This document shows positions 1,011 to 61,769 of a stretch of DNA of 64,000 nt, in pieces; position 1 is the first letter of the stretch, and every line of letters starts with the position of its first letter. Below the pieces are notes generated by a model, which made no database searches, had not been told where the DNA came from, and worked only from the letters and a program-made list of their open reading frames with translations. The translations under genes and the position numbers were made by a program. The DNA lies in contig RDOA01000003.1 in NCBI GenBank assembly GCA_011364925.1, positions 1 to 64,000 of the forward strand, written 5' to 3'. The stretch is from Promethearchaeota archaeon. Lineage in GTDB: Archaea; Asgardarchaeota; Lokiarchaeia; Sigyniarchaeales; SOKP01.

Positions 1011-1061
1011 AATCATAGGATACATGAGTGATATTTAAATAAAAAATAAAGTATGTTGGAA

Positions 1062-1074
1062 TTTTCCTTTATAA
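1062..1074 (+). promoter_or_regulatory. TTTTCC+TATA promoter motif (TTTTCCTTTATAA)
   Basis: TATA starts 41 nt before ATG 1109; the motif recurs before about 10 genes. Confidence 0.6.
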
Positions 1075-1108
1075 GGAGTCAATTAGTGTTGAGTATTAGT
1101 GATTTTAT

Positions 1109-1471
1109 ATGACTAAAAACCAATCAGTTTACATTTTAGAAAAGAAAAGAAAACCGAACAAATTTCTTTTAGTATTTATCAGTATTTTAGGTTTCGTAGC
1201 AATTTATGTGCCATTCTTCGGCTCAAACTTGCGATACATGACCGGTACCGCTTTCAAACTTATCTTCAACTATTTCGGAACCTTTTGTTTGATTGTAGGG
1301 GGTGCGTTCTTAGCAATTTGTGTTCTGAAAGTCATTGGTGGGAAAGTTGATATAGAAGGATTTGTAGTAAGCGTTCTCCTCTTGTGGATTGGTTCTTTTC
1401 TAACTGGAATTCCATTTGAAATCATGGGATTTGTATTCGGAGGGACCCAACCGCCTCAAGGATACCACTAA
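1109..1471 (+). CDS. small 3-TM membrane protein
   Basis: 120 aa, basic N-terminus followed by hydrophobic helices. Confidence 0.75.
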   Translation: MTKNQSVYILEKKRKPNKFLLVFISILGFVAIYVPFFGSNLRYMTGTAFKLIFNYFGTFCLIVGGAFLAICVLKVIGGKVDIEGFVVSVLLLWIGSFLTGIPFEIMGFVFGGTQPPQGYH

Positions 1472-1510
1472 TTTTTATTTAAAATCCCAAAAAAATTAGG
1501 TTATTATTTT

Positions 1511-1735
1511 CTACCTGAAAATTCTGAAGTATTTGAGTCCAGTGCTGAAGCCACAAACAACTAATAGAGCGAGAGAAACTAATGTCAATCCCATCATTTT
1601 GTAGCGTCGCCGGCTACTTCCCCACAATACAAAAATCAGCCCAATAATGAACCCTAATAATCCCACTAAAGAACCGAGGGCAATGAGAAACTCAACTCCC
1701 TCTAAAACAGCCTCGAAGTAATCAAACATTACCAT
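1511..1735 (-). CDS. 74-aa 2-TM hairpin protein with pilin-like (VirB2/CedA1-type) topology
   Basis: Two hydrophobic helices joined by a basic loop (SSRRRYK). The pilin call rests on topology only. Confidence 0.6.
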   Translation of the reverse strand: MVMFDYFEAVLEGVEFLIALGSLVGLLGFIIGLIFVLWGSSRRRYKMMGLTLVSLALLVVCGFSTGLKYFRIFR

Positions 1736-1786
1736 AATGATTATCGTATACTCTAAGTTTATTTAAATAAAAAATTGTGGAAGAAG

Positions 1787-1820
1787 TAGAAAGGTTAGAA
1801 AATGCTTTCTAACCAATCTA
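1787..1820. repeat. inverted repeat between divergent promoters
   Basis: GGTTAGAAA-atgc-TTTCTAACC at 1793-1814, extended by TAGA/TCTA. Confidence 0.7.
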
Positions 1821-1912
1821 AGAAATAGCTAAGGCGTTTTTTCAAAGAATTGCATGTCTAATGAAAAATCTCTGGCTTTAAAACAAAATCACTTCGCGAA
1901 ATTTCTGATTTT

Positions 1913-1925
1913 TTTTCCTTTAAAA
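1913..1925 (+). promoter_or_regulatory. TTTTCC+TATA promoter motif
   Basis: TTTTCCTTTAAAA; TATA starts 52 nt before ATG 1971. Confidence 0.6.
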
Positions 1926-1970
1926 GGGTAAAATTTGTGGTATCTTTAACTTAACTACAAGGCGTTTTTT

Positions 1971-6526: not shown

Positions 6527-7762
6527 TTAGACGTTTAATAAGATTTTTGCATCTGCTTGCCACTCGACCACTTTTTTAGATGATACTCCGCTAAGAACAG
6601 AGGCAATTGCTTCAGGATCAGAATCAATCAAGTCTTCAACTGTATTTATCCCATTTTTTGCTAGATTTTTCGCAGTACCATCTCCGATTCCTCTCACTTC
6701 GACCAACGAATGTTCTCCATTAACTTTTTCTGATATTTGGTTTTCTTCAATATCATCCTCTTCCTCGAATAAAGTTTCGACTTCGAAATCCAATCCTGGA
6801 CCTTCCGAGACATCTCCTTTCTCAGTATCAGCAATTCCAACGCTTGTAATGTAAAACTCCGCTTCTTCAGGAGGTAAATCAGGAGCGTCTACGATTATCG
6901 CTCTACGCTTTAACGAATTGTTTGAGGAGAATCCCTTTGTTTTAAACATCACCCGGAAGTGACAACCATGCGCAACTATGTTTCCTCCAATAGCGTCATC
7001 GGCAGAGAACATGCCCATCATCTTAGTCGACACTTGATTGGTTAGCAGAATAGCACAATTATAGGTTTCGGCAACTCGCGATAATCCGTGAATCATGTTG
7101 TTGAGAACGCTCTGTCTACGAGCTAATAACCCGATGCCTACAAATTCTGCCCGTAAAAGCGCCATTAAACTGTCCACTACGATTAAACGCACATTCCGCG
7201 TCTTACATAGCGTTTCAGCCTTCTGGATCATTTGCATTTGGTGGTCGGACGAATAAATCCTGGCGTGGAATATTTGCGATAGCACCTTCTTAGGATCAAG
7301 TCCAAACCTTTTAGCAATTCTTTTTATTTTTTCTTTGGAAAAAGTATTTTCCGTATCTATATAAGCTACAGCTGCGCCCAAACCACCTTTCTTCTTAGGT
7401 AATTGGATCGTCACCGCGATCGTGTGAGCTAAATTCGTTTTCCCGCTTTTAAACGGACCATATACCTCGGTGAGCTTTCCTGTTTGAAATCCACCGCCCA
7501 ATATTCGATTTAGCTCAGAGGACCCGGTCGTAATGTATTCCGTGTTCTCGTCAATATCACCCGCTGCGATAAAGTCGGTCATACCTAAAGCGTTTCGCGC
7601 GTTCCAGATTAATTTCTTCGCCGTTTTATCTCCTAAACCTTCGATTTCAGAGATTATATTGTGCGGAGACATCGCAAGGGCTTCTGCTGTGCTAATTCCA
7701 CTTTCTTGAAGGAGCTTAATCTGTCTTGCGTTGATCGATTTTACTTGGTCTAAATCTGAAAT
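6527..7762 (-). CDS. radA: RadA/Rad51-family recombinase with an extra C-terminal HhH domain; probable ATT start at 7762
   Basis: Walker A GPFKSGKT, YIDTENTF, Walker B IVVDS, LTNQV, GGNIVAH. The N-terminal HhH (SDLDQVKSINARQIKLLQESGISTAEALA) extends in frame 30 codons upstream of ATG 7672. Confidence 0.9.
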   Translation of the reverse strand: MSDLDQVKSINARQIKLLQESGISTAEALAMSPHNIISEIEGLGDKTAKKLIWNARNALGMTDFIAAGDIDENTEYITTGSSELNRILGGGFQTGKLTEVYGPFKSGKTNLAHTIAVTIQLPKKKGGLGAAVAYIDTENTFSKEKIKRIAKRFGLDPKKVLSQIFHARIYSSDHQMQMIQKAETLCKTRNVRLIVVDSLMALLRAEFVGIGLLARRQSVLNNMIHGLSRVAETYNCAILLTNQVSTKMMGMFSADDAIGGNIVAHGCHFRVMFKTKGFSSNNSLKRRAIIVDAPDLPPEEAEFYITSVGIADTEKGDVSEGPGLDFEVETLFEEEDDIEENQISEKVNGEHSLVEVRGIGDGTAKNLAKNGINTVEDLIDSDPEAIASVLSGVSSKKVVEWQADAKILLNV

Positions 7763-7898
7763 TTTTCGATATCAACTCCTAGTTACATAATTTGAGATTA
7801 TATCACCTTAAAATCATCTACTTATAAAGAAAAAAATTGAATCTGATCTTTTACATTTAGGAATTATAATCTAGAGGTTTAAAAACATTAATTCCATC

Positions 7899-15156: not shown

Positions 15157-15540
15157 TTAAACAAAACCTTGTTCGACATAGAGGGAAAGTTCTTTTAAAA
15201 ATTCTTCTGGGGTAATTCCGTAAGTTAAAACTTTATGCCACAATTTAATATTCTGCGAGTGGAAATTAGCCTTGCCTTCGTCTAAATCTATCGCGAATTC
15301 GACGATTACGTCTTTGATAGAGAACTTAGATTTATCGCGGGCTCCAAAATATTCCCCAAACGCAAAAAACATGTTAATAATCATATCTATATCCTCGTTT
15401 GAGAAACGCCGCTTACATAAGTCGCAAACAATGCCGAGTTTTAAGCTGGATTGATACGCTTTATTACGTTCTTTTATGTCGGCGTGGCAAATCGAGCATT
15501 TTAACTTGTTTGAGACTTTAGACTTTGGCGTGTTGATCAT
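15157..15540 (-). CDS. C4 zinc-finger hypothetical protein
   Basis: CSIC...CDLC. Confidence 0.7.
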   Translation of the reverse strand: MINTPKSKVSNKLKCSICHADIKERNKAYQSSLKLGIVCDLCKRRFSNEDIDMIINMFFAFGEYFGARDKSKFSIKDVIVEFAIDLDEGKANFHSQNIKLWHKVLTYGITPEEFLKELSLYVEQGFV

Positions 15541-15562: not shown

Positions 15563-15575
15563 ATTTAAAGGAAAA
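15563..15575 (-). promoter_or_regulatory. TTTTCC+TATA promoter motif
   Basis: Reverse complement TTTTCCTTTAAAT; TATA starts 29 nt before ATG 15540. Confidence 0.6.
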
Positions 15576-15643
15576 GAAAAAATGGCTAAAGAAATTTATC
15601 CTTTATATATAGATCAATTCAAATCTCACTACATCTCAAAATG

Positions 15644-16359
15644 TTAGCCTCGTGATAATCCGCACTCCTTAATTTCATACTTGAACTTTCTTGATATTAA
15701 GTAATCGCCGCTTATTATCTCCATCTCTTTAAACTTTGAATTAAAGCGTGATGACAGAGATACGTTAATGGCTTGAATTCTCGAATATAATTTGTTAAAA
15801 AAAGGTTGATTTCTGCCCAAATTTGGATCAAACGATACCTCGTGGATTAATATCAAAATTATCTTTTCTCTCAGACACCGCATAATAAGAGGAAATAACT
15901 GCGAATTAAAGAATCTATCAAGAAGGATATTTCTTCTCCGAATATCTGAATACATAGAAGCTGCGAAGCGTAAATGGTGGGATATGTTATCGATTACAAT
16001 AAACTTTGCATTAGACGGTAATAAACTGGTTCCAATGTTGCTTAAAAAAAGTGTTTGTTCATTGAAGTTAGAAAACGGCTTTTTTGCAGGACACACAAAT
16101 ACATTTCTCAGTAAATAATTAATTTTACCAGGGAAATTCTTGAAAAGTACTATCAAACGCTTCTTGGAAAACGGTTCGCTAGCTTGTATCCAAACACAAC
16201 TATTTTTATAAGGTGTGCCCCTCGTTAATATTGTACTTATTATTTGAAGCGCAAGGGTGGTCTTTCCCGTTCCTGACTCACCAGAAATAGATATGATACT
16301 TTGGTTCTTCTGTGAGAGATTGTATATGTATGAAAAACAGTATTGCCTAGCTCAATCAT
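15644..16359 (-). CDS. RadB-like RecA-family paralog; N-terminus out of frame (T5 run) or non-canonical start
   Basis: Walker A SGESGTGKTT lies upstream of the track's TTG start; Walker B FIVIDNIS. ATG 16359 joins the frame only if the T5 run at 16333-16337 were T6. Confidence 0.75.
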
Positions 16360-16362
16360 AAT

Positions 16363-16707
16363 CTAATCGTTGCTCAGCAAATCTAAAACTTCTCGTTGAG
16401 TTTTCTCGATTTCATCTCGCCTCTTCCTCGATTCTTCAGATATTTGCTTTGATGCCGTATTATTCTGAGGATTGCTCGAAACGAGCTGTTGGAGCATCAT
16501 TAATGTCAGTAAATCGTCAAAATTTCTATCTTGAGCCGATTGTTGACCACTAAAAAATGATCCCACCACTCCTTTTCCGCTTTTTTTAGCCTTGTAATAA
16601 AGATATATAGCCAGTCCTGTACCCACGATAATGACCGTGTACACCGGCTCTTTCTGGAAGAAAATCAACATCACGATTGCTACTGCGATTAAACAATACC
16701 CTTTCAC
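16363..16707 (-). CDS. 2-TM membrane protein with a cytoplasmic helical tail
   Basis: Abuts the protease gene and lies 3 nt upstream of the RadB-like ATG. Confidence 0.7.
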   Translation of the reverse strand: MKGYCLIAVAIVMLIFFQKEPVYTVIIVGTGLAIYLYYKAKKSGKGVVGSFFSGQQSAQDRNFDDLLTLMMLQQLVSSNPQNNTASKQISEESRKRRDEIEKTQREVLDLLSND

Positions 16708-17475
16708 TTACCATTGCGCCTCCTTTTCGATTTGTTTGTTAAACTCTTTAAACCTCCGTTTCCGAGTCAAGAACTTTGGACTTGACACATCATTTTTGCC
16801 AAATTTACCTCTTATCATGCTGAATGCTTTTCCCATAGTCCAAAATACGAATTTAAAAATATAATAAAATAGAATCATAATCATAAAGTATTCGATGTAA
16901 TACAACACCTCAAATGGAAGGGATACAAAATAGAGATCAATGAATGCCCACACTAACACTCCCGAGAGTAAAACTAAGAAAATTTGATAAAGAGAATATC
17001 TTGGATTTTTGTTAAAAGTAATCCCAACTAATCTAACATCTTGTCTAGATGGCGCTGAACCTATAAGTAGTGAAAAACAGAATACAACGGTGACTATGTT
17101 TACCCAGATCTCTGTATCTATATGAAAAATCACATCAAGACCAAACATGAATAGAAATGTCGATATGAATAAGGGGGCAAAACTTATCATGAAAGTTTGC
17201 ATAAAAGAATTGCGCTCGAACTCGGGATTACCAACTGAACCATGAGGAGCAACTCTACGACTACCCGTCCTATGATAAGCAATGCTAATCTTTCCCATTT
17301 TAGTACCAAAGAGAACACCAAGAGTATAGTGTGATAATTCGTGAACCACCACTCCTATAAACATGAGAACATCAAACATTGTCTTAAAACCTGGCGTGTG
17401 TGCGCGCCTATAAAGTGCTCGAGTTCCCATTGAAACTAATAACATAACGAAGATCCAAAGATAAAATTCAATCAT
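16708..17475 (-). CDS. membrane zinc metalloprotease (M50/site-2-protease-like)
   Basis: GVVVHELSH in a TM segment, SFAPL, APSRQD; multiple TMs. Confidence 0.75.
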   Translation of the reverse strand: MIEFYLWIFVMLLVSMGTRALYRRAHTPGFKTMFDVLMFIGVVVHELSHYTLGVLFGTKMGKISIAYHRTGSRRVAPHGSVGNPEFERNSFMQTFMISFAPLFISTFLFMFGLDVIFHIDTEIWVNIVTVVFCFSLLIGSAPSRQDVRLVGITFNKNPRYSLYQIFLVLLSGVLVWAFIDLYFVSLPFEVLYYIEYFMIMILFYYIFKFVFWTMGKAFSMIRGKFGKNDVSSPKFLTRKRRFKEFNKQIEKEAQW

Positions 17476-18048
17476 ATGATAAAATCATTGTCAGATGAAG
17501 ATTTATAAACAAAAAATTTCAAGGGCTTTTTATAATCGATTTTTCACAATTTTATGGTAAACTTTAATAATTACCTAAGATGTATTTTCAACGGGAGACT
17601 TAAGGAAAGTCGAAGGATTGGAGCTTAATTCCTAATATCATTTAAAAGGTCTAAGGGATTATATAGAGTTTTGATTTATCTTTAGTAATATCAAAATATC
17701 TTCTCATCATTAATTTTAATCAGCTTTTGGAAATTTATTCCATTACAATCCCTTCTAAACTCTCAATTTATACTACAGTAATATAGAGCGTGAAATCAAT
17801 ATTGCATTCGATCTAATTAGATTCGAAAAAACATTCAATATTGCATGGATCTTAGAAAAAATAACTTTTTATCTTTTAGGTATTAAACTTTATCCCCACA
17901 AGTGAGGGATCTCTTTGAAGAATTTATTGTAATTTTCCTAAATTTTAGAGCATAGAATTTTTATTAGCTTTTAAAGCAACTTCTCATCGTTCCCAAAAAA
18001 TTTTTAAATAACACTCCCGATCTTCATCCTTTGAAAAAAAAAAATAAA

Positions 18049-19338
18049 ATGTTGAGTAAAAAAATGGCAACACATAATGTAGAAAAATTTGATTCGGTAG
18101 GTATCGATCCTAACCAGAATCCTTTAGAATGTTGTGATGTTTGCAATTCTCAGGATATTGTTGAAACCCAGGAGGGTTATGTTTGCGCTAACTGTGGAAT
18201 AGTTTTGGAAATTCAAAAGTTAGAATACTATCGACCTTACGATAGGGATATCGTTCAATGCGCGGTTTTAAATAAAACACAAATGGGATATAGAAGTGAA
18301 AGATTAAATTCTAAAAATTCCCATCGATTAGAGGAATTGAGCAAGTTAGATTCCTTACGATCAAGTGAAGAAAGCGTAACCGTTCTAGCTCGCGTCGAGA
18401 TAAAACGCATTTTAACGGCGCTAGGTTTCCCTTTAACCGATGTTGACCCTCTTATGGAGAAGTTCAAATACAATCGGACTCAATTAGGGAAAGGAACTAA
18501 ATATCGCAGTCCTCAAATGTTGGTCCCATGTATCGTTTACGCGTATTATAAAGAAAACAATAAACCAATTCGAGAAAAAGACTTGTTAGAATTGACGAAT
18601 ATCTCTAAAAAAGACTTTAACGCCTTCAAGTTTTCGATTTTGCGTATCTGGCCAGAATATCAAGAACGTAACAGAAAGGAATACATCACTCAAAGAATCC
18701 TAGAAGTCACAGAGCATTTTGATCTTAATATGTCTTTTTTCTATCAATCAAAAAGGATTCTTAATAAGTTTTACGATAACATAAAAGGAACAAAAGATGA
18801 TGTAATAATTGGACTTGTTACTTCAATAACTCTCCTCTGCTCACAGCAAAAAGGAGTAAGTATTTCCGCCTTGTGTAATAGATTAGACATAAAGATGTCC
18901 ACAATTCACAGACAGGTAGAAAAACGGGTAATGCAAAGGTTTAAAATATCTGGATTTAAAAGTTTAGTAAAATCAGCTGACCTTTTAAAAAAGGTTATGA
19001 CTAAATTAGGAGTGCTCGATGCTTCACTTAATGACAATGAAGATAACTCTAAAGATATGGCGGATCACGACGATTTAATTCAAGTAACCTTAGGAAATGC
19101 GAAACCCATCTTTAATAACTTGAATACCAATGATAATTATTGTTTATTTACAAAAGGCTATAATGAAATTTTAGGAATGTCTATTATTGATAATAATAGT
19201 AATACTAACCTTAATCATATTCTTCAAACTAATGAACTTAAAAGTTCTAACAAAATTAAGAAAGTTGATAACAAGGATAAAGTAATGTTAGAATTGTGGA
19301 GATTTTCACCTCCTAAGGGCCCTCCGATAAGTTGTTAG
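18049..19338 (+). CDS. divergent TFIIB/TFB paralog (Zn ribbon plus two cyclin folds, with a C-terminal extension)
   Basis: CDVCNSQDIVETQEGYVCANCGIVLE; cyclin-like repeats (PCIVYAYYK...LLELTNIS; VSISALCNRLDIKMSTI). The start could be 18031, 18049 or 18064. Confidence 0.8.
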   Translation: MLSKKMATHNVEKFDSVGIDPNQNPLECCDVCNSQDIVETQEGYVCANCGIVLEIQKLEYYRPYDRDIVQCAVLNKTQMGYRSERLNSKNSHRLEELSKLDSLRSSEESVTVLARVEIKRILTALGFPLTDVDPLMEKFKYNRTQLGKGTKYRSPQMLVPCIVYAYYKENNKPIREKDLLELTNISKKDFNAFKFSILRIWPEYQERNRKEYITQRILEVTEHFDLNMSFFYQSKRILNKFYDNIKGTKDDVIIGLVTSITLLCSQQKGVSISALCNRLDIKMSTIHRQVEKRVMQRFKISGFKSLVKSADLLKKVMTKLGVLDASLNDNEDNSKDMADHDDLIQVTLGNAKPIFNNLNTNDNYCLFTKGYNEILGMSIIDNNSNTNLNHILQTNELKSSNKIKKVDNKDKVMLELWRFSPPKGPPISC

Positions 19339-26275: not shown

Positions 26276-26322
26276 TTAATAAAAATTTTTTCTTTTTATT
26301 TTTATAATAAATTAATTAAGTA

Positions 26323-26898: not shown

Positions 26899-26911
26899 TG
26901 GAGTTAAAGCG

Positions 26912-34749: not shown

Positions 34750-34819
34750 GATTTATACATTCATGTAAACTTAAATTTTTTTGTTTAAATATAAAGGCTA
34801 CATGTGATCTTCGATCCCT

Positions 34820-38130: not shown

Positions 38131-38251
38131 GAGTAAACTTTGTGTTTTTTTTTATAAAATTATCTTTTAGAATGAATAGCCATTTATTAACCTCTAAGCG
38201 TTAGAAATGTTTTTTGAGAGATTGACTACATTTAAATTTTTTATTAGAATT

Positions 38252-38264
38252 TTTTCCTTTATAT
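38252..38264 (+). promoter_or_regulatory. TTTTCC+TATA promoter motif of the VirB4-like operon
   Basis: TTTTCCTTTATAT; TATA starts 55 nt before ATG 38313. Confidence 0.65.
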
Positions 38265-39062: not shown

Positions 39063-39913
39063 ACGAACAACTGTTGGACTTAAAATTAAAAAGGTTGATT
39101 CAACTTTGTAGAGAAACTCAAAACTATAAAAAGTTAGCGGTTGTTAGTTTTGTTCTTACAAGTAATACAGTTGACGAGATCGGGATTAAGCTTGGGATGA
39201 GACCGAGAGAAAAAAATGCTGGCGAAAAGATTTTTGAGTATATGGAGCTCGTGAACAAAGTTTTTTCACTCAATTTTAATATAAAGGTGTTTAAACCTGA
39301 GATTGTCGAAGGGCTCTCCCAAATCGAACTTCTATTCCTCAAAAAAGAAGGGGAAATAGGATTAGAATACATAAGAGAAGTTTTTGGTATTTACTACGAA
39401 CTTAGGAAGCTAGAAGTTCCTAATTTGCACGAGAACTTAAACTCAGACATATTAGATCGGAATAGGGCAATATCGTTATTTTCGTTCTTATCTGGAGGGC
39501 AGAGCTCGCGAAAGAATAAAGACGGGGCGTTTAATCCGATCCTTCTGCACAAAATTAGAGAAGAAGAAAAAGCTCTCCAAATTCAGCTCGAGCGAGAGTT
39601 CGATAAGGACACTTTCGAGAAGATCTTACACCTCAAAACTATGAGAAAAAACATCGAGCACCGTTCCAAGGGAAAAATTGTTATTTCCGGCTCATTAAAG
39701 GACAATATATCCTATAGGCAATCAAAAGAAAGAATTGGACAGTTTTTAATCTTCGGACTGATTGTATTATTCGCTATGATTGGAATTATAACTGCAATCG
39801 AATCATTCATGTATGGTGTGTTATCAGAAGCTATTGGTTATAACATGCTTATCTGTTTTGGAGCAATAATCGTGCTCTATTTTATTAATAAAAGCTACTA
39901 TAGGAGAGGGTGA
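39059..39913 (+). CDS. helical protein with two C-terminal TMs
   Basis: Overlapping start/stop codons with both neighbours. Confidence 0.75.
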   Translation: MNEQLLDLKLKRLIQLCRETQNYKKLAVVSFVLTSNTVDEIGIKLGMRPREKNAGEKIFEYMELVNKVFSLNFNIKVFKPEIVEGLSQIELLFLKKEGEIGLEYIREVFGIYYELRKLEVPNLHENLNSDILDRNRAISLFSFLSGGQSSRKNKDGAFNPILLHKIREEEKALQIQLEREFDKDTFEKILHLKTMRKNIEHRSKGKIVISGSLKDNISYRQSKERIGQFLIFGLIVLFAMIGIITAIESFMYGVLSEAIGYNMLICFGAIIVLYFINKSYYRRG

Positions 39914-42900: not shown

Positions 42901-43686
42901 GGTTACAGCAACTTAGTTGACGGTATTATTAAATTTTTAAACAACCTCCAAGCAGTAGATAAAGTGGGAAATATGTACAGAAAGAAAATAAGGGAAGAGC
43001 TCCAAAAGGTATTACACCCTTACATTTTAAAAATAACTCGAGAGAAAAAAAGAGAAAAAGATATTGTTGATAGAGTGTTCGCTATTTTAATTAGACAGCA
43101 ATACTTAATAGAGAGCCATCCCAAAAGAGCGAGCGGTTCAGAATCGATGCAAACATCGTTCGCGGTCGGTCCACGATATCAAAAAGTTTTAAAAGATTAC
43201 TACGAATCCCGGGACAGCTCAATCATCAGTTACGAACCAATAGATCTCGAATCCGATATAACACCTCAAACAGAGCGTACGAATACTACTAATTTAAAAA
43301 ACGCGTTAACAGAACACTTTGCACCTATTCTATATTACGAATTTTTCAATATTCATAAATTCATCGCTCAGCAAAAATACGAAAAAGCTTTGAAAATAGC
43401 AAAAACGCTTCTGAGAAGATATCTTTACGAAGTTTACAATAGCTATTATAGCGTTGATTACACAATAACGAGCGCAGACATAAATAAATTTATAACTCTT
43501 ATGACCACTACAGAGAATTTTCCATTTACAGAAAAGGAGTTAAGCACATTCTTGTCTATGTGTGATGAAATTACTCCGGACGAAAAGAACCTAAAGCAAC
43601 AGAGTAAAAACTTATTCAACTCTTATTCAAAACTTTTCAACAAGTTCAAATCCTACTTAGAAGGAGAGGTGGAAGTAGTATCGTAG
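39910..43686 (+). CDS. membrane-anchored VirB4/HerA-like protein with degenerate Walker motifs
   Basis: AVIFDFTGNW, FVINPL, VIIDLS, GTIFSASQ, N...NIVAFR. The Walker A position reads ITNGTYSNRE and Walker B reads FIVMPHID. The N-terminal 2TM+domain module is duplicated. Confidence 0.65.
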   Translation: MINSLVKSYAHMLKNSDKKKGKTFSAEFTKIDDQEKKFLKIWKVNPSYKDIEKKETLLKTGSLTILGFIFFSCALYATRNLVLSIIITSIIVISYVVVFHKSIFSLKHVFEFKSFDPFQKLVFWQPIYDKSILFFTNHKDLTTTGMRIFQIKVIPENVHANLKRFIKGLHAVKVPYSYQIIQKPLQIANDTRSGAQISSFETLIYFSTFYFFNGRVTESKMLKLVESLREYTVSLQSAFASNFHHFKIALLTESELIEVFRNSVLKQNIGIENESTNASHKPYTHEKVNSIIKLIYILSIVISLDFFLLILSFPIGIRILLIAFIIASSILIWWRELLFQVNKGKLFKSKDIEVLAPFSGIQFYKSSKTPETLFFKAKGSLIGGLKMLNLNFSYPPSYCSPDKFYAALIRDSMPFTVTFQLRPLTFSQFDKEGFKYLRDNIKKKLLSKTEKFIDGNNWLSLRSGIWSTIGTYSTCVVFNSPDFTYELVDKMEQKLITQKTVLYNTFKQFFTNFEIIPLRHNKLEAGFLFENLKNKFFLRNGTHLNYILYQGINLCYIAALSDQFKKGVETKLATEFNTPLQLTNYVTVGNTINTEFLEGEVPAGFLLNQLRNILITNGTYSNRELLAQKIVIELVKMGHNAVIFDFTGNWSKVMNWFRGTRYEDQFIYHKLGKTFVINPLRSGIPYDTDNPGFLDYMLDVYAMCFKKDEKTIETFRNTILRNPDIDVSTLVLDLTTMREWDKSAVTDTLLSFFKEFTPHDSNFIPQQQVDTQDNTFAYEFITNDKTVIIDLSDLNDYDKQCYFSFVAISKFIHYLKTGKSFNPKFIVMPHIDIIFDGFFLESKIQYGKIDKFFRPLLENNFGTIFSASQIRYLHTNVFNFLVNIVAFRATDNRDIAVFNGQMNLESLHGVGYYSTSRNEGYQARYIGNMKQDEAVVKRDDIYQSFPVKFDLDDIRNMEPLSWQEIVSYMKNQGYDLENTERKVMKRAQTTLFESDFAGYSNLVDGIIKFLNNLQAVDKVGNMYRKKIREELQKVLHPYILKITREKKREKDIVDRVFAILIRQQYLIESHPKRASGSESMQTSFAVGPRYQKVLKDYYESRDSSIISYEPIDLESDITPQTERTNTTNLKNALTEHFAPILYYEFFNIHKFIAQQKYEKALKIAKTLLRRYLYEVYNSYYSVDYTITSADINKFITLMTTTENFPFTEKELSTFLSMCDEITPDEKNLKQQSKNLFNSYSKLFNKFKSYLEGEVEVVS

Positions 43687-43733
43687 TCCAAGACCAGAAA
43701 AGAAGAACCTACGAGCAAATCATAGAAAAAATT

Positions 43734-44072
43734 GTGTTCGACGAAGATGAATTAAACAAACTTAAAGATAAAATTCGGGATTTAGTCGAGGGTAAGATTC
43801 AAGCTAAGCAGCTTAAACAAAATTTGTTGCAATCAAGAGATCGTATAGTCAAAGATTTATCGAAATTTTTAATTTTTTGCATCGAACGTGTGGAAAGTAA
43901 CAATCAAAATCGAAACCTTGAAAAAAACTCGGCTTCTAATAAACCAGATTTGGAATTTGAACGATTACGTAAAGATATAGCAGAAAAAAATGAGTTTTTA
44001 GAAATCGTTGCTAAAAAAGTTGATAATCTTGTGTCTAAAGTTAAGGTCGCTAATAAATCTGAAATTTCATGA
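43734..44072 (+). CDS. coiled-coil protein, last gene of the operon
   Basis: 112 aa, heptad-rich. Confidence 0.65.
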   Translation: MFDEDELNKLKDKIRDLVEGKIQAKQLKQNLLQSRDRIVKDLSKFLIFCIERVESNNQNRNLEKNSASNKPDLEFERLRKDIAEKNEFLEIVAKKVDNLVSKVKVANKSEIS

Positions 44073-47659: not shown

Positions 47660-47746
47660 TGGAATTTAGCCTTCAAATTTTGATTTTTTCCTTTATATAC
47701 ATACCTTGGAGAATTGGTTATAGAACTAAAAAAATGTGATTATAGA

Positions 47747-48916: not shown

Positions 48917-49032
48917 TTTTTCCTTTTTTTATTTTTACTGGGCTGTAAAGTCGATTTTTGCTATACTTTTTATATTTATTCACTATTATTAATGTAAATA
49001 TTATTTTTTCGATAAAATAAGGATGATTTGAT

Positions 49033-50530: not shown

Positions 50531-50644
50531 AACCCATGTTGTTATAAGAAAATCTAGACTTATAAATAGATTCCATATATGGATTATCAGTTTGAAATTT
50601 TTCCTTTAAATTATGATGAATATTTTGAGTTATAACTAAATTAG

Positions 50645-52351
50645 ATGATAATTAATTCGAGTTTAAAAAGAATGACACTAGCGTTAGTCAAAGTATCGTG
50701 TATTAACGATCGCCTAATCCCTTTAGGTTTGGCGTGTTTACAGGCGTATTTGAAGCAACAGACACAACCAGTTCGCGTTTTTAACTTCAGGACTTCGAAT
50801 TACACTTTGCCAAAAGTGATGTTCGATCCTCTCATTCAATTAGATTTAACAGATTTCATTATGAACCATCAAGACTTTCCAATAATGATTCCCCTCGTGG
50901 ACGATCTCCTTCGAAATCTTCGACCTAACTTTGAGGAAGGCGTATATCCTGAGATCGTGAAAGATTATTCTAAGAGGATGTTCGAAGCTCCGGAAACGAC
51001 CATAAAGCGTTTTGAAGCGATGATGAAGTATTGTAAGAGTACTGTTCTAGAAGAATTAAAAGAATATGATATAATTGCATTTTCGGTGAATTACCTTAAC
51101 ATTTTGGAAACAGTGATTTCTTCTTGCTTCTTAAAGCAACATAATCCAGACTGTATAATCGTTTGGGGCGGACCCTCCATCACTCAATCCTTTGAAGCGT
51201 ACAAGCTTTTTTTGAGGAGAAGAATATGTAATGGCCTTGTAATTGGAGAAGGAGAAAATCCGTTATTAGAAATTGCAAAAGGAACGGAGTTAACCAAAAT
51301 AAAGGGCGTAATGACCTTAGATCACCAACAAAATTATAGTTATTCACCTGGAATTCAACTTGATTTAGATACACTTCCTACTCCCGATTACACCGATATC
51401 CCATTAGATACCTATTATCAAATTGCTTCAACCTATAGATCGCGTGGGTGTACAAATAGGTGTCAATTTTGTGCCGAGTGGAAGCTCTTCGGTCCGCGTT
51501 TTAGAATTCGGTCAGTAGAAAAAGTAGTCCAAGATATAGAGATCATCGTGCGAACATTTAAACCGAGGTTCATGTTGTTTGGAGAGTCGTTAATCAACGA
51601 TAATCTCGAATATTTTGAGCAACTTTGCGATCAACTTATAGAAAAGCACTTAAATATCAAGTTTGGAACTCATTTTCGAGCCAACATTACTCCGAGCCTC
51701 GCTAGAAAGGCAAAATTAGCGGGATTTGAGGACGCGTGGGTGGGACTCGAAGCGTTCTCAGATTCGGAACTTAAAGAAATGAATAAAGGAACCAGCGTTA
51801 ACCATAACATGGAAACCATTGAAAACCTAACTCAGGCGGGTGTAAACGTGCTCGCGATGCTTGTTGTAGGTTATAGCGATTACGAGAACGAGATAGCCAA
51901 CTGTAACAATGTGATCCGAACGATAGAACACTTCTCTAAACAATATTACGTTGATCTGAAGGGAATTGAGCGTCCGCTTCCGATTCAATTTCGTCCAGCA
52001 CCAATGTATATCGTCCCTGGTTCATTTGATTACCAAGCGAAAAAAGGTACCGCGACATTTCCGTGGATATGTGCTTTTAAGAGTCAGAAGAACACACAAC
52101 AGATTACTGAATTAGAAAAAGAGTTAAGTGATATACCTTATTCGTTTGACCGTCCGATATCTAAGGACCAAATAGTAAGTTTTATGGCGCAAATTCAAGA
52201 CGCTGATAGAAATGCCGGTTTTATGATTGGTGGCGTTATGAAATATGCGATCGAATACACTATGGAAATGAGGAGAAAGAACCGTCAGAATCGAAAAACT
52301 GAAAGAATAGGAATATCAGCTCAGAGATTCGAAGCGAAAGTCAAACATTAA
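50645..52351 (+). CDS. B12-binding-domain radical SAM enzyme
   Basis: PLGLACL, VWGGP, GEGE, SRGCTNRCQFC, VGLEAFS..L..MNKG; TTTTCC+TATA motif at 50599-50611. Confidence 0.88.
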   Translation: MIINSSLKRMTLALVKVSCINDRLIPLGLACLQAYLKQQTQPVRVFNFRTSNYTLPKVMFDPLIQLDLTDFIMNHQDFPIMIPLVDDLLRNLRPNFEEGVYPEIVKDYSKRMFEAPETTIKRFEAMMKYCKSTVLEELKEYDIIAFSVNYLNILETVISSCFLKQHNPDCIIVWGGPSITQSFEAYKLFLRRRICNGLVIGEGENPLLEIAKGTELTKIKGVMTLDHQQNYSYSPGIQLDLDTLPTPDYTDIPLDTYYQIASTYRSRGCTNRCQFCAEWKLFGPRFRIRSVEKVVQDIEIIVRTFKPRFMLFGESLINDNLEYFEQLCDQLIEKHLNIKFGTHFRANITPSLARKAKLAGFEDAWVGLEAFSDSELKEMNKGTSVNHNMETIENLTQAGVNVLAMLVVGYSDYENEIANCNNVIRTIEHFSKQYYVDLKGIERPLPIQFRPAPMYIVPGSFDYQAKKGTATFPWICAFKSQKNTQQITELEKELSDIPYSFDRPISKDQIVSFMAQIQDADRNAGFMIGGVMKYAIEYTMEMRRKNRQNRKTERIGISAQRFEAKVKH

Positions 52352-53641: not shown

Positions 53642-53804
53642 TTTAACGCACCATTGACTTGTTTATACTTTCTAAATACCCCTAAACTATTTAAAGGAAA
53701 ATTTGAAAATCGACTATTAGAACAATTTTGACAAAATTTTTTTTTAAATAAAAATAAATCTTTAATTCCTCAATATAATCAAATTTAGTTATCTGAAACC
53801 AATA

Positions 53805-55413: not shown

Positions 55414-56013
55414 ATGTCTCCTCAACTCACTTTTTTTATAAATTATTGAGCTAAAATAATAGTTATATAACTTATTTAAAAACTTAAGCAAGTCTGCGGG
55501 TTTTCTAATATTTCCTACGACAAACGGGAAAACGAATCGTATCATATTACACTGAAATACGTCGGATCAGACAATTCCAATTATTTAACGATTAGAGCGC
55601 TTGTTCTTAAATTTAACGGGAATAATACTATGAAAGTATTTTTGTCGGGATTCTAAAAAAAAGGAAAAAAAGTAGGTATTGTCGAAATCATATAACCAGT
55701 AAGACACCTATAATACTAATAGTTAAGATTAAAAAGAGATTACCGAAATTTACTGCGATTACGAAAACAACGAATTGGAGAATAAGGGTAAATTGAATAA
55801 CCACTCCTATCTCTTTCACGTAGCACCTATTGGCTAATAAAATCCTAACAACCATGTTGACAACAAATGACAACCGTTATTAACTGTCAAGGAAAAAATT
55901 CTCTTTATTTGTAGCTTCTATCTCTATTACATTAGCTTTATTATATGCATGATTCCTATTGTGGTAAGATTTAAATAGAGAACTAACAAAAATGTATAAT
56001 AGAGGTCGTAATC

Positions 56014-56517
56014 ATGATCGAAAAAGAACCATTTTCTGAGAAGCAAGCTGACGAAAAACTCAGAAGCGAAATTAAGGAAGAAATAAAACGGGAAATGCGA
56101 GAAGAGCAAAGAGTAAAATCAGGGAAATCGAGAAAAACAGCGGGTGTAATTATAAGCGGCGTTGGTGCGATATTATATCTTATTTTTGGATTCTTTCTTT
56201 TAATATTAGGTTCAGGAATGGGAATTATGCGCAACATCGCTATTATGATGTTAATTGCAGGAGGAATTTCAATCACAGGAGTAATAGTAGCAATGTATAA
56301 AGTAAAAATAGGCGGTATAATCACTTTAATCTCAATACCGATCGCTATCGTTATTGGAATAATCTTACAGTTCACGGAACTTCATTACTATTATTATTAT
56401 TACTGGTTATATCTCCTTGAATATATGTTGGCGTATACACCGTATGCATATTTACACGTCATACCTGGTGGAATTATATGTTTAACTGCTAATGACATGG
56501 AAGAAATTAGCCGGTAA
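56014..56517 (+). CDS. 4-TM Tyr-rich membrane protein, array copy 1
   Basis: EIKEEIK helix, KTAG.IISGVGA, KVKIGGII, LHVIPGGIICL. Confidence 0.8.
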   Translation: MIEKEPFSEKQADEKLRSEIKEEIKREMREEQRVKSGKSRKTAGVIISGVGAILYLIFGFFLLILGSGMGIMRNIAIMMLIAGGISITGVIVAMYKVKIGGIITLISIPIAIVIGIILQFTELHYYYYYYWLYLLEYMLAYTPYAYLHVIPGGIICLTANDMEEISR

Positions 56518-56742
56518 AACGAACTACATATAATTTTTTTATTTTAATTTATTTTTTCCGATTTAGTAAAGTCGTGAGAAATTCTTAGCAGTATTATTTC
56601 CTACTAAGATTGTGAAAGTCAAAAAAATTCTCTTTATTTATAGCTTCTACCTCTATTTCATTAGCTTTATTATATCCATGATACCTATTATGTAAAGATT
56701 TAAATAGAGAACTAACAAAAATGTATAATAGAGGTCGTAATC

Positions 56743-57234
56743 ATGATCGAAAAAAAACCATTTTATGAAGAAGAAGCTGACGAAAAACTCAGAAGCGAAA
56801 TTAAAGAAGAAATAAAAAGGGAATTGAAAGAAGAAAAAAGAGTAAAATCAAGGAAATCGAGAAAAACAGCGGGAATAATTATAAGTGGTGTTGGTGCGAT
56901 ATTATATCTTGTTTTTGGATTCTTTTTTTTAATATTGGGCTCGTCATATGGATATATGCGCGATGCTGCTGTTTCTATGTTGATTGCGGGAGGAATTTCA
57001 ATTGCAGGTATAATAGTAGCATTATATAAAGTAAAAATAGGAGGCATAATCACTTTAATCTCAATTCCGATCGCTATCGTTATTGGAGTAATCTTAATGC
57101 TCATGGAACCTTATTCTTATTATTATTACTGGTTAAATTTCATCCAATACGTAATATTTCCTCTCCCTATTCCGCACTCGTTACACGTCATCCCTGGTGG
57201 AATTATATGTTTAACTGCTAAGGACATAGAATAA
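56743..57234 (+). CDS. array copy 2
   Basis: Paralog of 56014. Confidence 0.8.
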   Translation: MIEKKPFYEEEADEKLRSEIKEEIKRELKEEKRVKSRKSRKTAGIIISGVGAILYLVFGFFFLILGSSYGYMRDAAVSMLIAGGISIAGIIVALYKVKIGGIITLISIPIAIVIGVILMLMEPYSYYYYWLNFIQYVIFPLPIPHSLHVIPGGIICLTAKDIE

Positions 57235-57476
57235 AATAGACATCAAAACGATCTAAATATCCTTTTTTTATTTTAATTTATTTTTTCCGATTTAATAAAG
57301 TCGTGAGAAATTCTTAGCAGTATTATATCCTAATAAGATCGTATAAGGCGAAAAATTTCTATTTATTTATAGTTTCTATCTCTATTTCGTTATCTTTATT
57401 TATTATAAGAGAGATTTTCGATGATGTAAACATTTAAATAACCTAACCACAAAGATGTATATCAGAGGTCGTAATC

Positions 57477-57971
57477 ATGAACGAAGGAGAGCCAATTTCT
57501 GAAAATCAAGTTAAAGAAAAACCCAGAAACGAAATCAAAGAAGAAATAAAACGGGAAATGCGAGATGGACAAAGAGAAAAAAAAGGGGAGTCAAGAAAAA
57601 CAGCGGGAATAATTATAAGTGGTGTTGGTGCGGTATTATATCTTGGTTTTGGATTTCTTTTTTTAACTTTGGATTTTGGATATAGTTATTTGCGCAGCTT
57701 CCCTCTTACATTAGTGGTTATTGGAGGAATTTCAATGACAGGAGTAATAGTAGCGCTGTCTAAAGTAAAAATAGGTGGTATAATTACTTTAATTTCGTTG
57801 CCGATTGCATTCGTTATTGGAATCGCCATGGAACCTTATTACTATACCTATTACTCGACGTATCCTCTTCTATATATGTTGATATATGGTACACCATTTG
57901 GGTATTTACATGTCATACCCGGTGGAATTATATGTTTGACTGCTAGCGATGTAGAATTAAGTACCCACTAA
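57477..57971 (+). CDS. array copy 3
   Basis: Paralog of 56014. Confidence 0.8.
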   Translation: MNEGEPISENQVKEKPRNEIKEEIKREMRDGQREKKGESRKTAGIIISGVGAVLYLGFGFLFLTLDFGYSYLRSFPLTLVVIGGISMTGVIVALSKVKIGGIITLISLPIAFVIGIAMEPYYYTYYSTYPLLYMLIYGTPFGYLHVIPGGIICLTASDVELSTH

Positions 57972-58624: not shown

Positions 58625-58834
58625 AATTAAACAAGTAAAACCGATTATATCATAAATAATTTTTTTTTTTAATCCAATATAACTCCCATTAATTCTTATT
58701 ACAATATGATCGTGAAAGCAGACTTTTACGAAGAAAATCTAATCGCTTATTCTTTTAAGTTTTTTAAAAGAGGGAAGTTTTTATAATCTTCAAGACTCTC
58801 AATCCTTTTAATTTTTGATTTTCATTTTATAAAT

Positions 58835-59314
58835 GTGGACAAAAGGATAAAAGATTCAGCAAATTCATCTACAAAGCATAGTATAGTAGATTATAAAGAA
58901 TGTTAAAAATGTAGAGTATTATATCCAAGCACTTCAGAACATTTCTATAAGAATAAAAATCGTAAAATGGGACTAGATGCATGGTGTAAAAAATGTAAGA
59001 AGGATTATGATCATAAACGACATAAAGTCTATAGATACGGTATAAGTTTACAAAAAGTAAATGAATAAATTGCTGCGCAAGAGAAGAAATGTGCGATATG
59101 TGGACGACTATTTGATGATATTTTTAACACATACAAGGATAAGAATACGATACGCTCTCCGAGAGTTGATCACGACCATAAATCGGGAAAAATTAGAGGA
59201 ATTTTATGCAACCGATGCAATATCCTCTTGGGGTTAGTAAAAGATAGTATATCAATATTATGTAGAGCAATAAATTACCTCAATGAAGAAAGAAAGGAGA
59301 TTAAAAAAAAGTAA
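58835..59314 (+). pseudogene. endonuclease VII (His-Me finger) pseudogene
   Basis: KEC*KC...WCKKC...RYGIS...Q..KCAICG...VDHDHKSGKIRGILCNRCN.LLG...AINYL, with in-frame TAA at 58904 and 59066. Confidence 0.85.
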
Positions 59315-59438
59315 ATTAGATCCTTGTAAACATTTATTAAATTTTAACATAGAAATAGAATTAATATATACAAGCTATGCATAAGTACATATTAAATACC
59401 AATTGTTTGAAATTACAACAAAAGAAAGGTAATTTGTA

Positions 59439-59663
59439 ATGAGAAAGAGAAATATCGCTTTTATTTTGTTTGCCGTTGCGGGAGTTAACCTTCTAACGCT
59501 TCCTATATTAATTCTTATATATACACCGTTATTTGCACAACTTGGATTGCCATCTACCGTTGTAAACAGGGTTATGATGACTGTTGCTATATCTGGAGTA
59601 ATCCCAGCTATCGCCCTCATAATCGCGGGAATAATAGTTCTTATTAAATTTAGAAATACTTGA
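59439..59663 (+). CDS. 74-aa 2-TM protein
   Basis: Basic N-terminus and two hydrophobic helices; AGGT upstream. Confidence 0.65.
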   Translation: MRKRNIAFILFAVAGVNLLTLPILILIYTPLFAQLGLPSTVVNRVMMTVAISGVIPAIALIIAGIIVLIKFRNT

Positions 59664-59729
59664 ATTATTTTTGATTCAAAATTTTTACTTTTTCCTCTTT
59701 ATTATCGATTGAATTACGAATTAGAGGTT

Positions 59730-60473
59730 TCAGTCTTGAAAAAAATCAATGTTAAATTCTTCTAGATCATCTGGCGGCCATGCAGAAGGCGTTTTGGAGT
59801 TTTTTACGAACCTATGGGTGCATAGTGGAGCGCCAAATCCAAGCGTTTTGTCTCGAGAGAAGCCAAATCCTAAACCTTCTGCTTCGTAATAATCCCCTAA
59901 ACAAATTAACGGTAAGTATTTCTCGTCTCCTAATTTCTTATAAGCTTTTTGAACCCCACACTCCGTTATATCCCACCCCCATTCAAACTTTTTGCCATCG
60001 CCTTCCACGAATTCCATAACCCAATCGTCTGGATAAACCCTCAATTGTGTTTCTTGAGTAAGTTTCTTTTGATAATCAACATACACGGGATCAAAAGGAT
60101 ATTGCGAAGGATCTCTTCCCGTGCTTTCTAATAATTCTTTTCTCTTCTTTTGGTCGCATAGGACATAGTGATAGTGAAATTCTCCTATTTCCCTAAACGA
60201 AAGTCCTGCTCTTTCTAATACGCGAAAAACTGCCAAATCAGACATGCATTTGACTAAGACTAGTGTAGTTGGATTCTTCTGTCCTCCTATGTATGGAATA
60301 TCAGGCAGAATTTTCTCGAATTCTTCTCGCATTTGATTTAACAAATCTTCAGTTTTCTTCTCGTCAAATTTCACTTTTAGTTCTGAGCTTACAGCCTTTA
60401 AACGCTCGTTAAAACCATTCATGAATTTAGATTTCTTTTTAACGTAAAAGTCTTCAACAATTTTAGGAGTCAT
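59730..60473 (-). CDS. L-2-amino-thiazoline-4-carboxylate hydrolase-family protein
   Basis: IPYIGG, DITECG, CLGDY, R.KTLG.GA..C.HRF. Confidence 0.78.
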   Translation of the reverse strand: MTPKIVEDFYVKKKSKFMNGFNERLKAVSSELKVKFDEKKTEDLLNQMREEFEKILPDIPYIGGQKNPTTLVLVKCMSDLAVFRVLERAGLSFREIGEFHYHYVLCDQKKRKELLESTGRDPSQYPFDPVYVDYQKKLTQETQLRVYPDDWVMEFVEGDGKKFEWGWDITECGVQKAYKKLGDEKYLPLICLGDYYEAEGLGFGFSRDKTLGFGAPLCTHRFVKNSKTPSAWPPDDLEEFNIDFFQD

Positions 60474-60631
60474 AGTAATTTATGATGAGTTCTTTTTATA
60501 TCAATTTAACTGAGGATCGTTCTCTAGATCTTCTTTTCTAGTGTTATACTAGAACAAAATTAAATATTTCAACTCTAATTATTAAGGTATACTTTATTTG
60601 ATAATTCAATCGATCATTAAAAGATGAGTTA

Positions 60632-60907
60632 ATGGACATAATTAAGCATCTTGCAAGCAGATTAGCGGAATTAATAAATATTAGTGCTCCCGCTGCTCGA
60701 GGTTTAATTAAATTAGCTATTAAAGACGAGATTGGTCCTTTCAGGCCGTTAAATCAAGTTTCTTTTAATGAATTTAAAAGTACAATAGAAAATTCGCTAA
60801 AAAAAAGGTTAATTAATTTGGAGATAGCTACGCACGAATTGATCGTACAGTATTTAGTCAGAGAACTTACAGAATATCAGTCATTAATTACATTAGGAGG
60901 TGTGTAA
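60632..60907 (+). CDS. small helical protein paired with the 7-TM gene
   Basis: AARGLIKLAIKDE; ends 2 nt before the next start. Confidence 0.7.
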   Translation: MDIIKHLASRLAELINISAPAARGLIKLAIKDEIGPFRPLNQVSFNEFKSTIENSLKKRLINLEIATHELIVQYLVRELTEYQSLITLGGV

Positions 60908-60909
60908 AG

Positions 60910-61704
60910 TTGACTCCTGAGCTTTTCTACATTGTGTTCGTGATCCTGTTTGGGATTTTTATTATCACTTTAGCGGTTATGGGCATTTTTCTTCTGATTA
61001 AAGGAGTAAGAAATAAGATGATTAACATCGTGCTGGTAGGATTAGCATTTATTTCACTACCAATTGGATTTATTGGAAATTTCATTTTTCAGTTGGGTTC
61101 AATTTTTCAAGAAACATTTATTGTGGCATGTTTTATTTTAACTGTGATTTTCACCAATTTAACATTTTATAAGAATAGGGGTTCATTTTCAAAGATACTT
61201 TTGTGTACAGTAATAATTTTAGCGTGCATTCAGTTATGGTTTTTCTTTATATCAGTTTACGGTGAATGGACTTATTATCTCTATTACATCCGTGTTGCTT
61301 TTGATTTTCCATATACATTTATAGTTTTTAACTGGTTATCGTATTCAGCTTATTCGGCTTATAAGCTCGTTAAATCGCAGAATATAGACCCGTGGATTAA
61401 GTTTAGATATAAGATGCTCGCAATATTCTCCTTTATCTTTAGTTTTCACAGTATTCCAGAATTTTTCCAACCTCCCGGAACTGTGTGGGGTGATCCTTAT
61501 AATATTGTGAGTTTAGCGGTTTTTGGAGGAACTGCTATTTTAGTAGTTGTATTCTCAATAGGATTTTCAACCGCTTGGATTATGCCGGGATGGTTGAAAA
61601 CCAGACTAAATAGAAACTACCACGCAATTGAAGACAAAGATTATCAAGAAAAAGAATTACTTGAATTGATAAAAAAAGAATTATCACAAAAAAGAACGCT
61701 CTAA
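60910..61704 (+). CDS. 7-TM receptor-like membrane protein
   Basis: About 7 hydrophobic helices; DPWIKFRY, AWIMPGW. Confidence 0.7.
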   Translation: MTPELFYIVFVILFGIFIITLAVMGIFLLIKGVRNKMINIVLVGLAFISLPIGFIGNFIFQLGSIFQETFIVACFILTVIFTNLTFYKNRGSFSKILLCTVIILACIQLWFFFISVYGEWTYYLYYIRVAFDFPYTFIVFNWLSYSAYSAYKLVKSQNIDPWIKFRYKMLAIFSFIFSFHSIPEFFQPPGTVWGDPYNIVSLAVFGGTAILVVVFSIGFSTAWIMPGWLKTRLNRNYHAIEDKDYQEKELLELIKKELSQKRTL

Positions 61705-61769
61705 TGTCGAATGTTCAATCCTTTTAATTTTATTTTCCTTTTAATTATTAACAAGAAATAAGTAATACA

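Follow-up and report, generated by a model that had tools for sequence, protein, structure and literature searches.

A T-tract promoter element confined to a conserved gene island of Loki-type Asgard archaea that encodes a divergent TFB

Do the genes at the start of contig RDOA01000003.1 of a Promethearchaeota archaeon (assembly GCA_011364925.1) share a promoter code of their own, and which factor would read it? The question arises from a sequence-only reading of the first 64 kb of this 144-kb contig (hereafter the window; the assembly comprises 3.92 Mb in 112 contigs, with 33% G+C), in which TTTTCC directly before the TATA box, in place of the purine-rich TFB-recognition element (BRE), was taken to define a second promoter class read by a paralog of transcription factor B (TFB). 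Our analysis shows that the first ~62 kb of the contig form a chromosomal island that is conserved among Loki-type Asgard archaea, in which ~16 transcription units carry a promoter with a T-tract/C element beside the TATA box, and that this promoter class is restricted to the island. The same island encodes a highly unusual TFB, a likely reader of these promoters.

Genes of the whole assembly were called with a hexamer model built for this analysis. The exact motif TTTTCCTTTWWA has ten matches in the window, all at the coordinates originally listed for it, against a mean of 0.58 in dinucleotide-preserving shuffles (maximum 3; none of 100 shuffles reaches 10). All ten copies are intergenic, and nine face the 5' end of the next called gene. 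Eight of the ten distances between TATA box and start codon that had been reported can be reproduced (41, 52, 29, 49, 54, 55, 40 and 31 nt), while the two remaining ones do not stand as given: at 47686 the distance is 55 nt if GTG 47747 is the start but 22 nt with the listed TTG 47714, and 53701(-) has no credible start at 54 nt, where ATG 53654 meets a stop after three codons, leaving ATG 53601 and TTG 53534 as the candidates that follow. Distances of 29-60 nt from TATA box to start codon would be compatible with leaderless or short-leader mRNAs. T-run variants of the motif are likewise present where they had been noticed, before the radA and hel308 paralogs, the protease operon and the genes downstream of 29901-29914(-) and 34776-34789(+) (Table 1).

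An expectation-maximisation (EM) motif search free of prior assumptions, applied to 53 upstream regions of the window and seeded from every 14-mer, returned TTTTT(T/C)C-TTTAWAT as the top motif and assigned it to ~60% of the regions. Positions -7 to -1 of its matrix read T 76%, T 91%, T/C 68/30%, T 76%, T 80%, C/T 45/48% and C 70%, and the informative element consists of 7 bp abutting the TATA box (TTTAWA) with zero spacing, position -1 being C or G in ~75% of sites (G in three). This 7-bp T-tract/C element occupies the BRE register. An AT-rich TATA box facing the gene, TTTAWA(T/A), is present at all sites, and no purine- or A-rich BRE is present upstream of it in the EM matrix of the island sites. 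With the matrix used as a position weight matrix (PWM, threshold >=12 bits), 15 of the 18 intergenic matches in the window face a 5' end. The DNA flanking the sites differs from one to another, and they are therefore not a repeated mobile segment. Two other approaches, a search for strand-asymmetric k-mers in all upstream regions and positional base composition, were set aside, as they recovered a Shine-Dalgarno signal only; the promoter-to-start distance is not fixed.

The distribution of the element in the rest of the genome is different. The assembly holds 56 exact copies, of which ten lie in the window and 34 of the other 46 inside genes, and there is none in the 80 kb by which the contig extends beyond the window. 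Twelve intergenic exact copies are found in the other 3.86 Mb, four facing a 5' end and eight a 3' end. The relaxed pattern TTTT[CG]C?TTTWWA gives 17 sense and 2 antisense matches among all intergenic copies in the window, compared with 31 sense and 41 antisense within <=90 nt of a gene boundary elsewhere. With the window-trained PWM, and with sequences facing 3' ends as the control side, 15 promoter-side matches are found in the window (11.6 per 10 kb), against 40 on the promoter side (0.66 per 10 kb) and 43 facing 3' ends (1.0 per 10 kb) in the rest of the genome. The promoter-side density is thus ~17-fold higher in the island than outside it, and no other 40-kb stretch of the genome has more than 3 matches. 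The expected excess of the motif at promoters over 3'-facing gaps, such as convergent ones, is accordingly seen in the window, while outside it the motif is at background.

When the EM search was run on 450 upstream regions elsewhere in the genome, it found a weak motif, A-rich plus TTTAAA, ~60 nt before starts, and when seeded with the island motif it drifted away from it. In addition, where TTTATATA and TTTAAATA occur in sense orientation, position -3 is an A in 52-56% of instances. The ordinary promoters of this genome therefore have the usual A-rich BRE, and the A-rich canonical contexts pointed out earlier at ~56695 and ~57428 are indeed present in the sequence. Some units of the window keep canonical promoters, among them the three 4-TM (transmembrane) genes at 56014-57971 (aagatttaaata) and the TFB gene. 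A core-promoter feature common to island genes and absent from other promoters is consequently found by motif search, by PWM and in relatives. The proposal of a second promoter class holds in that the element is oriented, abuts the TATA box at the BRE position and is kept at orthologous promoters, but not in its genome-wide extent.

Relatives were scanned with the PWM trained on this window. In nine syntenic regions around the orthologous TFB gene (305 kb) we found 71 promoter-side and 9 control-side matches, against 3 and 1, respectively, in five control regions from the same contigs (200 kb). Eight other genomes of the genus have this promoter type around their TFB ortholog. EM on one of these alone (G014) recovers the same motif at ~20 promoters. 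Of the 36 genomes of the genus that were sampled, 29 have an identifiable ortholog of the island TFB; orthologs with 25-29% identity also occur in one genus belonging to a sister family. Gene order is kept in G014, G015 and G017, and is still recognisable in the one-contig genome G050 of the sister family. Two genomes (G025 and G036) at first seem to have the island and island-type promoters without the TFB, but in both the contig ends where the TFB would lie or right beside it; another (G029) has neither the TFB nor the island Hel308. G008, a 4.9-Mb genome of the same genus, has three or more full-length island TFB copies, on C20, C49 and C12 (58-60% identity to the TFB of the window), which means that multiplication of the island, or of its factor, can occur.

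Orthologous promoters retain the T-tract and the TATA box while their flanks diverge, and the sequence before the TATA box may be a T-run followed by C, by CC or by G, or a bare T-run. TTTTCC as the defining element does not survive this comparison and is better seen as a species-level flavour of a T-tract element; as judged from the orthologous promoters, the conserved core is a T-tract with C beside the TATA box. Counts of the exact motif in relatives show a modest enrichment only, because most orthologous sites have a single C. The EM search on G015, G017 and G050 converged on purine-rich, Shine-Dalgarno-like motifs, which were rejected as promoter elements.

The gene at 18049/18064 had been taken for a TFB paralog, and both profile comparison and predicted fold bear this out. 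Sequence searches give little indication of it: with the Pfam TFIIB model, eight further TFBs are recovered from the genome and this one is missed, no match at E <=0.01 is obtained in Pfam (including PF00382, TFIIB) or NCBIfam, phmmer against the PDB yields nothing beyond Zn-ribbon hints, and nearly every public record of the protein calls it a 'hypothetical protein'. By hhalign, however, 25 island TFB orthologs align with the eight canonical TFBs (probability 98%, E 2.4e-13, 258 columns) from the Zn ribbon across the two cyclin repeats as far as the final helix. In the AlphaFold2 model, pLDDT values are 80-90 over residues 100-320, and the 41 best Foldseek matches of the model are all TFIIB, TFB or Brf chains; the match to 1d3u_B (P. 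woesei TFBc, BRE-TATA complex 1D3U) has a TMt of 0.79 and a root-mean-square deviation of 3.2 Å. The Zn-ribbon residues C24, C27, C41 and C44 are invariant in the 25 orthologs, and the ribbon aligns to the canonical one and weakly matches the TFIIB ribbon 1pft. The island TFB is a true but very divergent TFB, a member by profile and fold only. Its C-terminal extension (19020-19338, residues ~320-424) is modelled with low confidence; the stretches LGNA..VFN and ELW..PKGPP are found in all long orthologs, and the extension is absent from the ~310-aa relatives L035 and L038.

In canonical complexes, helix 3 of CLR/HTH2, in the second cyclin repeat, enters the major groove and reads BREup (PMC4581349). 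The eight canonical paralogs have G-V-T-E-V-T-(I/L/V)-R-x-R at the turn and helix, T, E, T, R and R being invariant among them and the variable positions giving RNRY, RSRY, RMRV, RSRS or RSRA, whereas the island family has D-I-K-M-S-T-I-H-R-Q at the same positions, with M, S, T, I and Q nearly invariant. The conserved BRE-reading signature of HTH2 is absent from the island TFB, the helix itself being modelled (H278-291; M278-Q284 within KMSTIHRQ), and the rewritten part comprises the turn and the N-terminal half of the DNA-reading helix.

The promoter of the TFB gene itself is canonical. The island motif is found upstream of none of 25 orthologs, which have an A-rich TATA promoter followed directly by a conserved box, ACTGGTGATCTTCAT, CACTCCCGATCTTCAT or CACTCCCCATCTTC. 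Archaeal repressors commonly sit just downstream of the TATA box, and the box at 18012-18027 is a candidate operator of whatever controls the island; a genome search for it found one weak second site, after a TATA-like taaatat at C48:133184. Island promoters precede both the gene just downstream of the TFB gene and the protease operon that diverges from it, and this arrangement, with a canonical promoter on the TFB gene between them, suggests a cascade in which a canonical TFB would act on the island TFB and the island TFB on the island genes. The gap between the protease operon and the TFB gene (17476-18063) is 590 nt long and free of open reading frames (ORFs), far longer than two promoters need.

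The explanation that we favour, and hold to be likely, is that the island TFB reads the T-tract/C promoters and drives the island as one unit. That it is the reader is probable from its co-location with the promoters, its co-inheritance with them and its changed helix. Under such a mechanism, host TBP would bind the TATA box, while the island TFB would bind the T-tract/C element through its rewritten helix and recruit RNA polymerase through its Zn ribbon. Canonical TFBs would use T-tract promoters poorly, and the island would be expressed as a unit only when its TFB is made, the TFB gene with its canonical promoter and operator-like box standing at the top of a two-step cascade. No TBP gene is found in the island and one full TBP gene is found in the genome, on C20, which fits the unchanged TATA box.

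Several observations weigh against this explanation. Helix variants within the genus (IKMSTIHRQ, IRMSTIHKQ, IQMSTIQRQ) do not clearly track the C, CC and C-less variants of the element. In G050, which has the island and a 28%-identical TFB, no common promoter element could be defined; GGC-TTTATA precedes two island genes there, too few for a claim, and TTGGGA, enriched in the same genome, was discarded as a promoter element, as it lies mostly beside start codons and is Shine-Dalgarno-like (6-mer counts per relative are noisy). Islands of the G015 type have 3 PWM matches in 40 kb, because many promoters there are bare T-runs. At the position of the canonical B-reader and B-linker (GPEWRAF-like), the island TFB has the stretch LEYYRPYD, modelled with pLDDT of 33-58. 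Some T-run sites, the nine in tandem gaps, may serve as terminators as well. Finally, eight other TFB paralogs are available in the genome. These differ at the variable helix positions, and many small island ORFs without a family match could bind DNA, so that the element could instead be read by another protein, either a canonical TFB paralog or an island-encoded activator, with the divergent TFB having a different role; the unclear covariation of helix and motif would agree with this. However, a second protein would compete with TFB at an element that abuts the TATA box at zero spacing in the BRE register, a general paralog would not be expected to leave promoters outside the island without enrichment, and no TFB apart from the one encoded in the island, and inherited with it, has a rewritten reading helix. 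We regard another reader as unlikely, though it is the most serious of the alternatives.

Less probable still is that the T-tract acts without any dedicated factor, as rigid poly(dA:dT), by histone exclusion or DNA shape, or as a terminator-insulator, and is merely inherited with the island. T-runs serve as terminators in archaea, nine of the 16 best sites come after a co-directional gene, in tandem gaps just behind it, some relatives keep a bare T-run without C, and elsewhere in the genome the motif is slightly commoner facing 3' ends than at promoters. The other 7 of the 16 sites (1061, 17516, 31016, 34776, 38251, 50598 and 53701) are in divergent gaps, where no gene ends upstream and there is nothing to terminate, and are therefore not terminators; the T-tract is strand-specific and its register relative to the TATA box is fixed, the C or G at -1 recurs in most sites, and a general structural device would be expected genome-wide rather than confined to the island here and in eight relatives. 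The window begins at a contig end, the motif stops at ~62 kb and the other 80 kb of the contig lack it, and Asgard viruses and mobile elements encode TFB homologs (bioRxiv 10.1101/2021.07.29.453957), all of which could point to foreign DNA with its own promoter style, whether a mobile element that has integrated or a chimera at the level of contig or bin. This we judge quite improbable given that window G+C (0.33-0.37) matches that of the genome (0.33 overall), that no integrase or capsid family was detected in family scans of ~50 window ORFs, that TFB orthologs are widespread in the genus, and that gene order is kept across the genus, with a recognisable version in a complete one-contig genome of the sister family; an ancient mobile origin of the island would be compatible with the explanation favoured here. 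A chance or compositional artefact is refuted and deserves practically no weight: T-runs are common at this G+C content and 12.9 matches with one mismatch would be expected in the window, but the exact motif far exceeds its shuffled expectation, its density differs sharply between island and non-island promoters, and the result is independently replicated in the eight other genomes.

If the island TFB is indeed the reader of the T-tract/C promoters, the fuller proposition would be that of an Asgard TFB paralog with orthogonal promoter specificity, dedicated to a ~60-kb island for recombination and possibly DNA transfer and placed atop a box-controlled cascade; in this complete form it appears to us evenly poised. 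If true, archaea would have in it a genuine equivalent of an alternative sigma factor, complete with a promoter code of its own, bearing on the diversification of the TFIIB family and on how Asgard archaea switch on a second set of recombination and membrane genes. It also matters for annotation, the factor being mostly recorded as a hypothetical protein, and such factor/promoter pairs might be used as orthogonal expression tools in archaea. Literature searches found no description of a T-tract BRE class, of this TFB family or of the island, and a 2026 Asgard review mentions neither a T-tract BRE class nor this TFB family.

The island promoters resemble the canonical BRE-TATA promoter of P. 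woesei (PDB 1D3U/1AIS; PMC4581349) in having an AT-rich TATA box with a gene-facing upstream element of 6-7 bp, and differ from it in that the element is a T-tract ending in C rather than purine- or A-rich. Similarly, the island TFB shares with canonical archaeal TFBs the Zn ribbon, two cyclin folds and a helix-turn-helix (HTH) at the C-terminus, but its invariant helix residues are replaced and the Pfam model misses it. In the haloarchaeal hsp5 core promoter, BRE and TATA box decide which TFB paralog (TFBb/TFB2) acts (PMC2396416). Regulation directed by a general transcription factor is established there and proposed for the island, yet the haloarchaeal paralogs are ordinary TFBs with scattered targets and are known from experiment, whereas the island has one extremely divergent TFB for one gene island, known from sequence. 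TFB2 of S. acidocaldarius controls a cell-division regulon whose promoters have near-identical TATA boxes and similar BREs and differ in BRE-TATA spacing (bioRxiv 10.64898/2026.09.06.749720). Like it, the island TFB would be a paralog with a defined gene set, there switched on as a wave; unlike in Sulfolobus, spacing is unchanged in the island, the element itself differs and the targets are clustered beside the factor gene. The promoter differences in the hsp5 case (BRE/TATA context) and the TFB2 case (spacing) are subtle compared with the island element, which is sharply different in cis, with factor and targets physically linked and inherited together.

TFB3 of the Sulfolobales reportedly activates DNA-damage genes and is said to be a truncated protein without the DNA-binding core that acts as an activator alongside TFB1. 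The two cases resemble each other solely in gene content, each having a TFB paralog tied to genes of DNA recombination and possibly of DNA exchange. The core of the island TFB is complete and includes an HTH of its own. A further parallel is offered by bacterial sigma factors of the extracytoplasmic function (ECF) type with their own -35 element, which belong to a different protein family and likewise involve a paralogous factor with changed promoter-reading residues, located beside its regulon and separately controlled. The M50-like protease operon beside the TFB gene may extend this parallel to ECF-type systems, but is only suggestive.

Table 1. Genes and promoters of the island, in order of position within the window; features given without coordinates are listed last.
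Feature	Position	Strand	Remarks
FEN paralog	3-1025		Family scan
Island promoter ATTTTCCTTTATAA	1061-1074	+	Before 1109-1471; divergent gap; exact match
Island promoter TTTTTCCTTTAAAA	1912-1925	+	Before 1971-2288; kept in G014, G015
RadA paralog, HhH domains at both ends	6527-7762	-	Family scan
Island promoter, TTTTTCTTTATA core	7822-7835	-	Before RadA paralog
Island promoter CTTTTCCTTTAAAT	15563-15576	-	Before 15157-15540; kept in G014, G015, G017
M50-like protease operon	15644-17475	-	Family scan
Island promoter TTTTTTGTTTATAA, G variant	17503-17516	-	Before M50-like protease operon; divergent from TFB gene
TFB gene promoter, canonical type	17995-18027	+	A-run 17995-18000; TATA 18001-18010; box CACTCCCGATCTTCAT 18012-18027
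Island TFB, 424 aa	18064-19338	+	Zn ribbon, two cyclin folds, altered recognition helix, C-terminal extension of ~100 aa ending PPKGPP
Island promoter TTTTTCCTTTAAAA	19409-19422	+	Before 19465-22410 (981-aa protein, alpha-toroid domain)
Island promoter TTTTTTCTTTTTAT	26286-26299	+	Before 26323-26898 and Hef-like helicase
Hef-like helicase	26891-29065	+	571 bits to Hef model
Island promoter TTTGTTCTTTATAT	29901-29914	-	Before 29606-29854; second T-run+G site just upstream
Island promoter TTTTTCCTTTTTAA	31003-31016	-	Before 30671-30955; divergent gap
Hel308 paralog	31526-34045	-	Family scan
Island promoter TTTTTTCTTTAAAT, T11 run	34099-34112	-	Before Hel308 paralog
Island promoter TTTTTTGTTTAAAT	34776-34789	+	Before HhH membrane protein
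HhH membrane protein	34820-36538	+	
Island promoter TTTTTCCTTTATAT	38251-38264	+	Before membrane operon
Four-gene membrane operon	38313-44072	+	Includes 1258-aa protein without family match
Island promoter TTTTTCCTTTATAT	47685-47698	+	Before 47714/47747-48916
Island promoter TTTTTCCTTTAAAT	50598-50611	+	Before radical-SAM gene; divergent gap
Radical-SAM enzyme	50645-52351		Family scan
Exact motif copy	53690-53701	-	No verified gene start within 90 nt downstream
Island promoter ATTTTCCTTTTAAT	61732-61745	+	Before EamA transporter; last site of cluster
EamA transporter	61770-62765		Family scan
Two ABC exporters; ABC-permease-like proteins			Family scan
PNK/phosphatase (PNKP paralog)			Family scan
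ThiF; Ras-like GTPase			Family scan

The recombination genes of the island are second copies: for RadA, identity to the copies on C81 and C29 is 46%; for FEN, identity to the C16 copy is 34%; and for Hel308, identity to the C22 copy is 38%. When the RadA paralog is read from 7762, in its longer form, the NCBIfam RadA model aligns with it starting at the N-terminus; G014, G015 and G050 keep the upstream in-frame extension, and the second HhH follows the ATPase core. The housekeeping-type RadA matches at C81:13323-14171 and C29:22763-23590 have one in-frame stop each (TGA and TAG, in a tblastn-style match) and may be interrupted or intron-containing genes. Close homologs of window proteins come from metagenome-assembled genomes labelled Lokiarchaeota or Hermodarchaeota.

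Some individual sites show further particularities. Orthologs of the G-variant promoter of the protease operon in G014 and G017 read TTTTTCCTTTATA. The site at ~15596(+), already described as lacking a sense gene downstream, is TTATCCTTTATA at 15596-15607 (+) and indeed faces none; it lies 20 nt from the promoter at 15576(-), an inverted arrangement also kept in G014, and may be an antisense or decoy site. In the 70-nt divergent gap 34750-34819, overlapping promoters are placed back to back on one AT-rich core, with TTTTTTTG-TTTAAATA on the + strand and CC-TTTATATT (CC-TTTATAT) on the - strand for 34297-34749(-). Finally, TTTTTCCTTTTTTT at 48917-48930 (+) and 55656-55669 (-) scores as the island motif with a TATA part that has no A; the copy at 48917-48930 is more likely a terminator, because it directly follows a stop codon.

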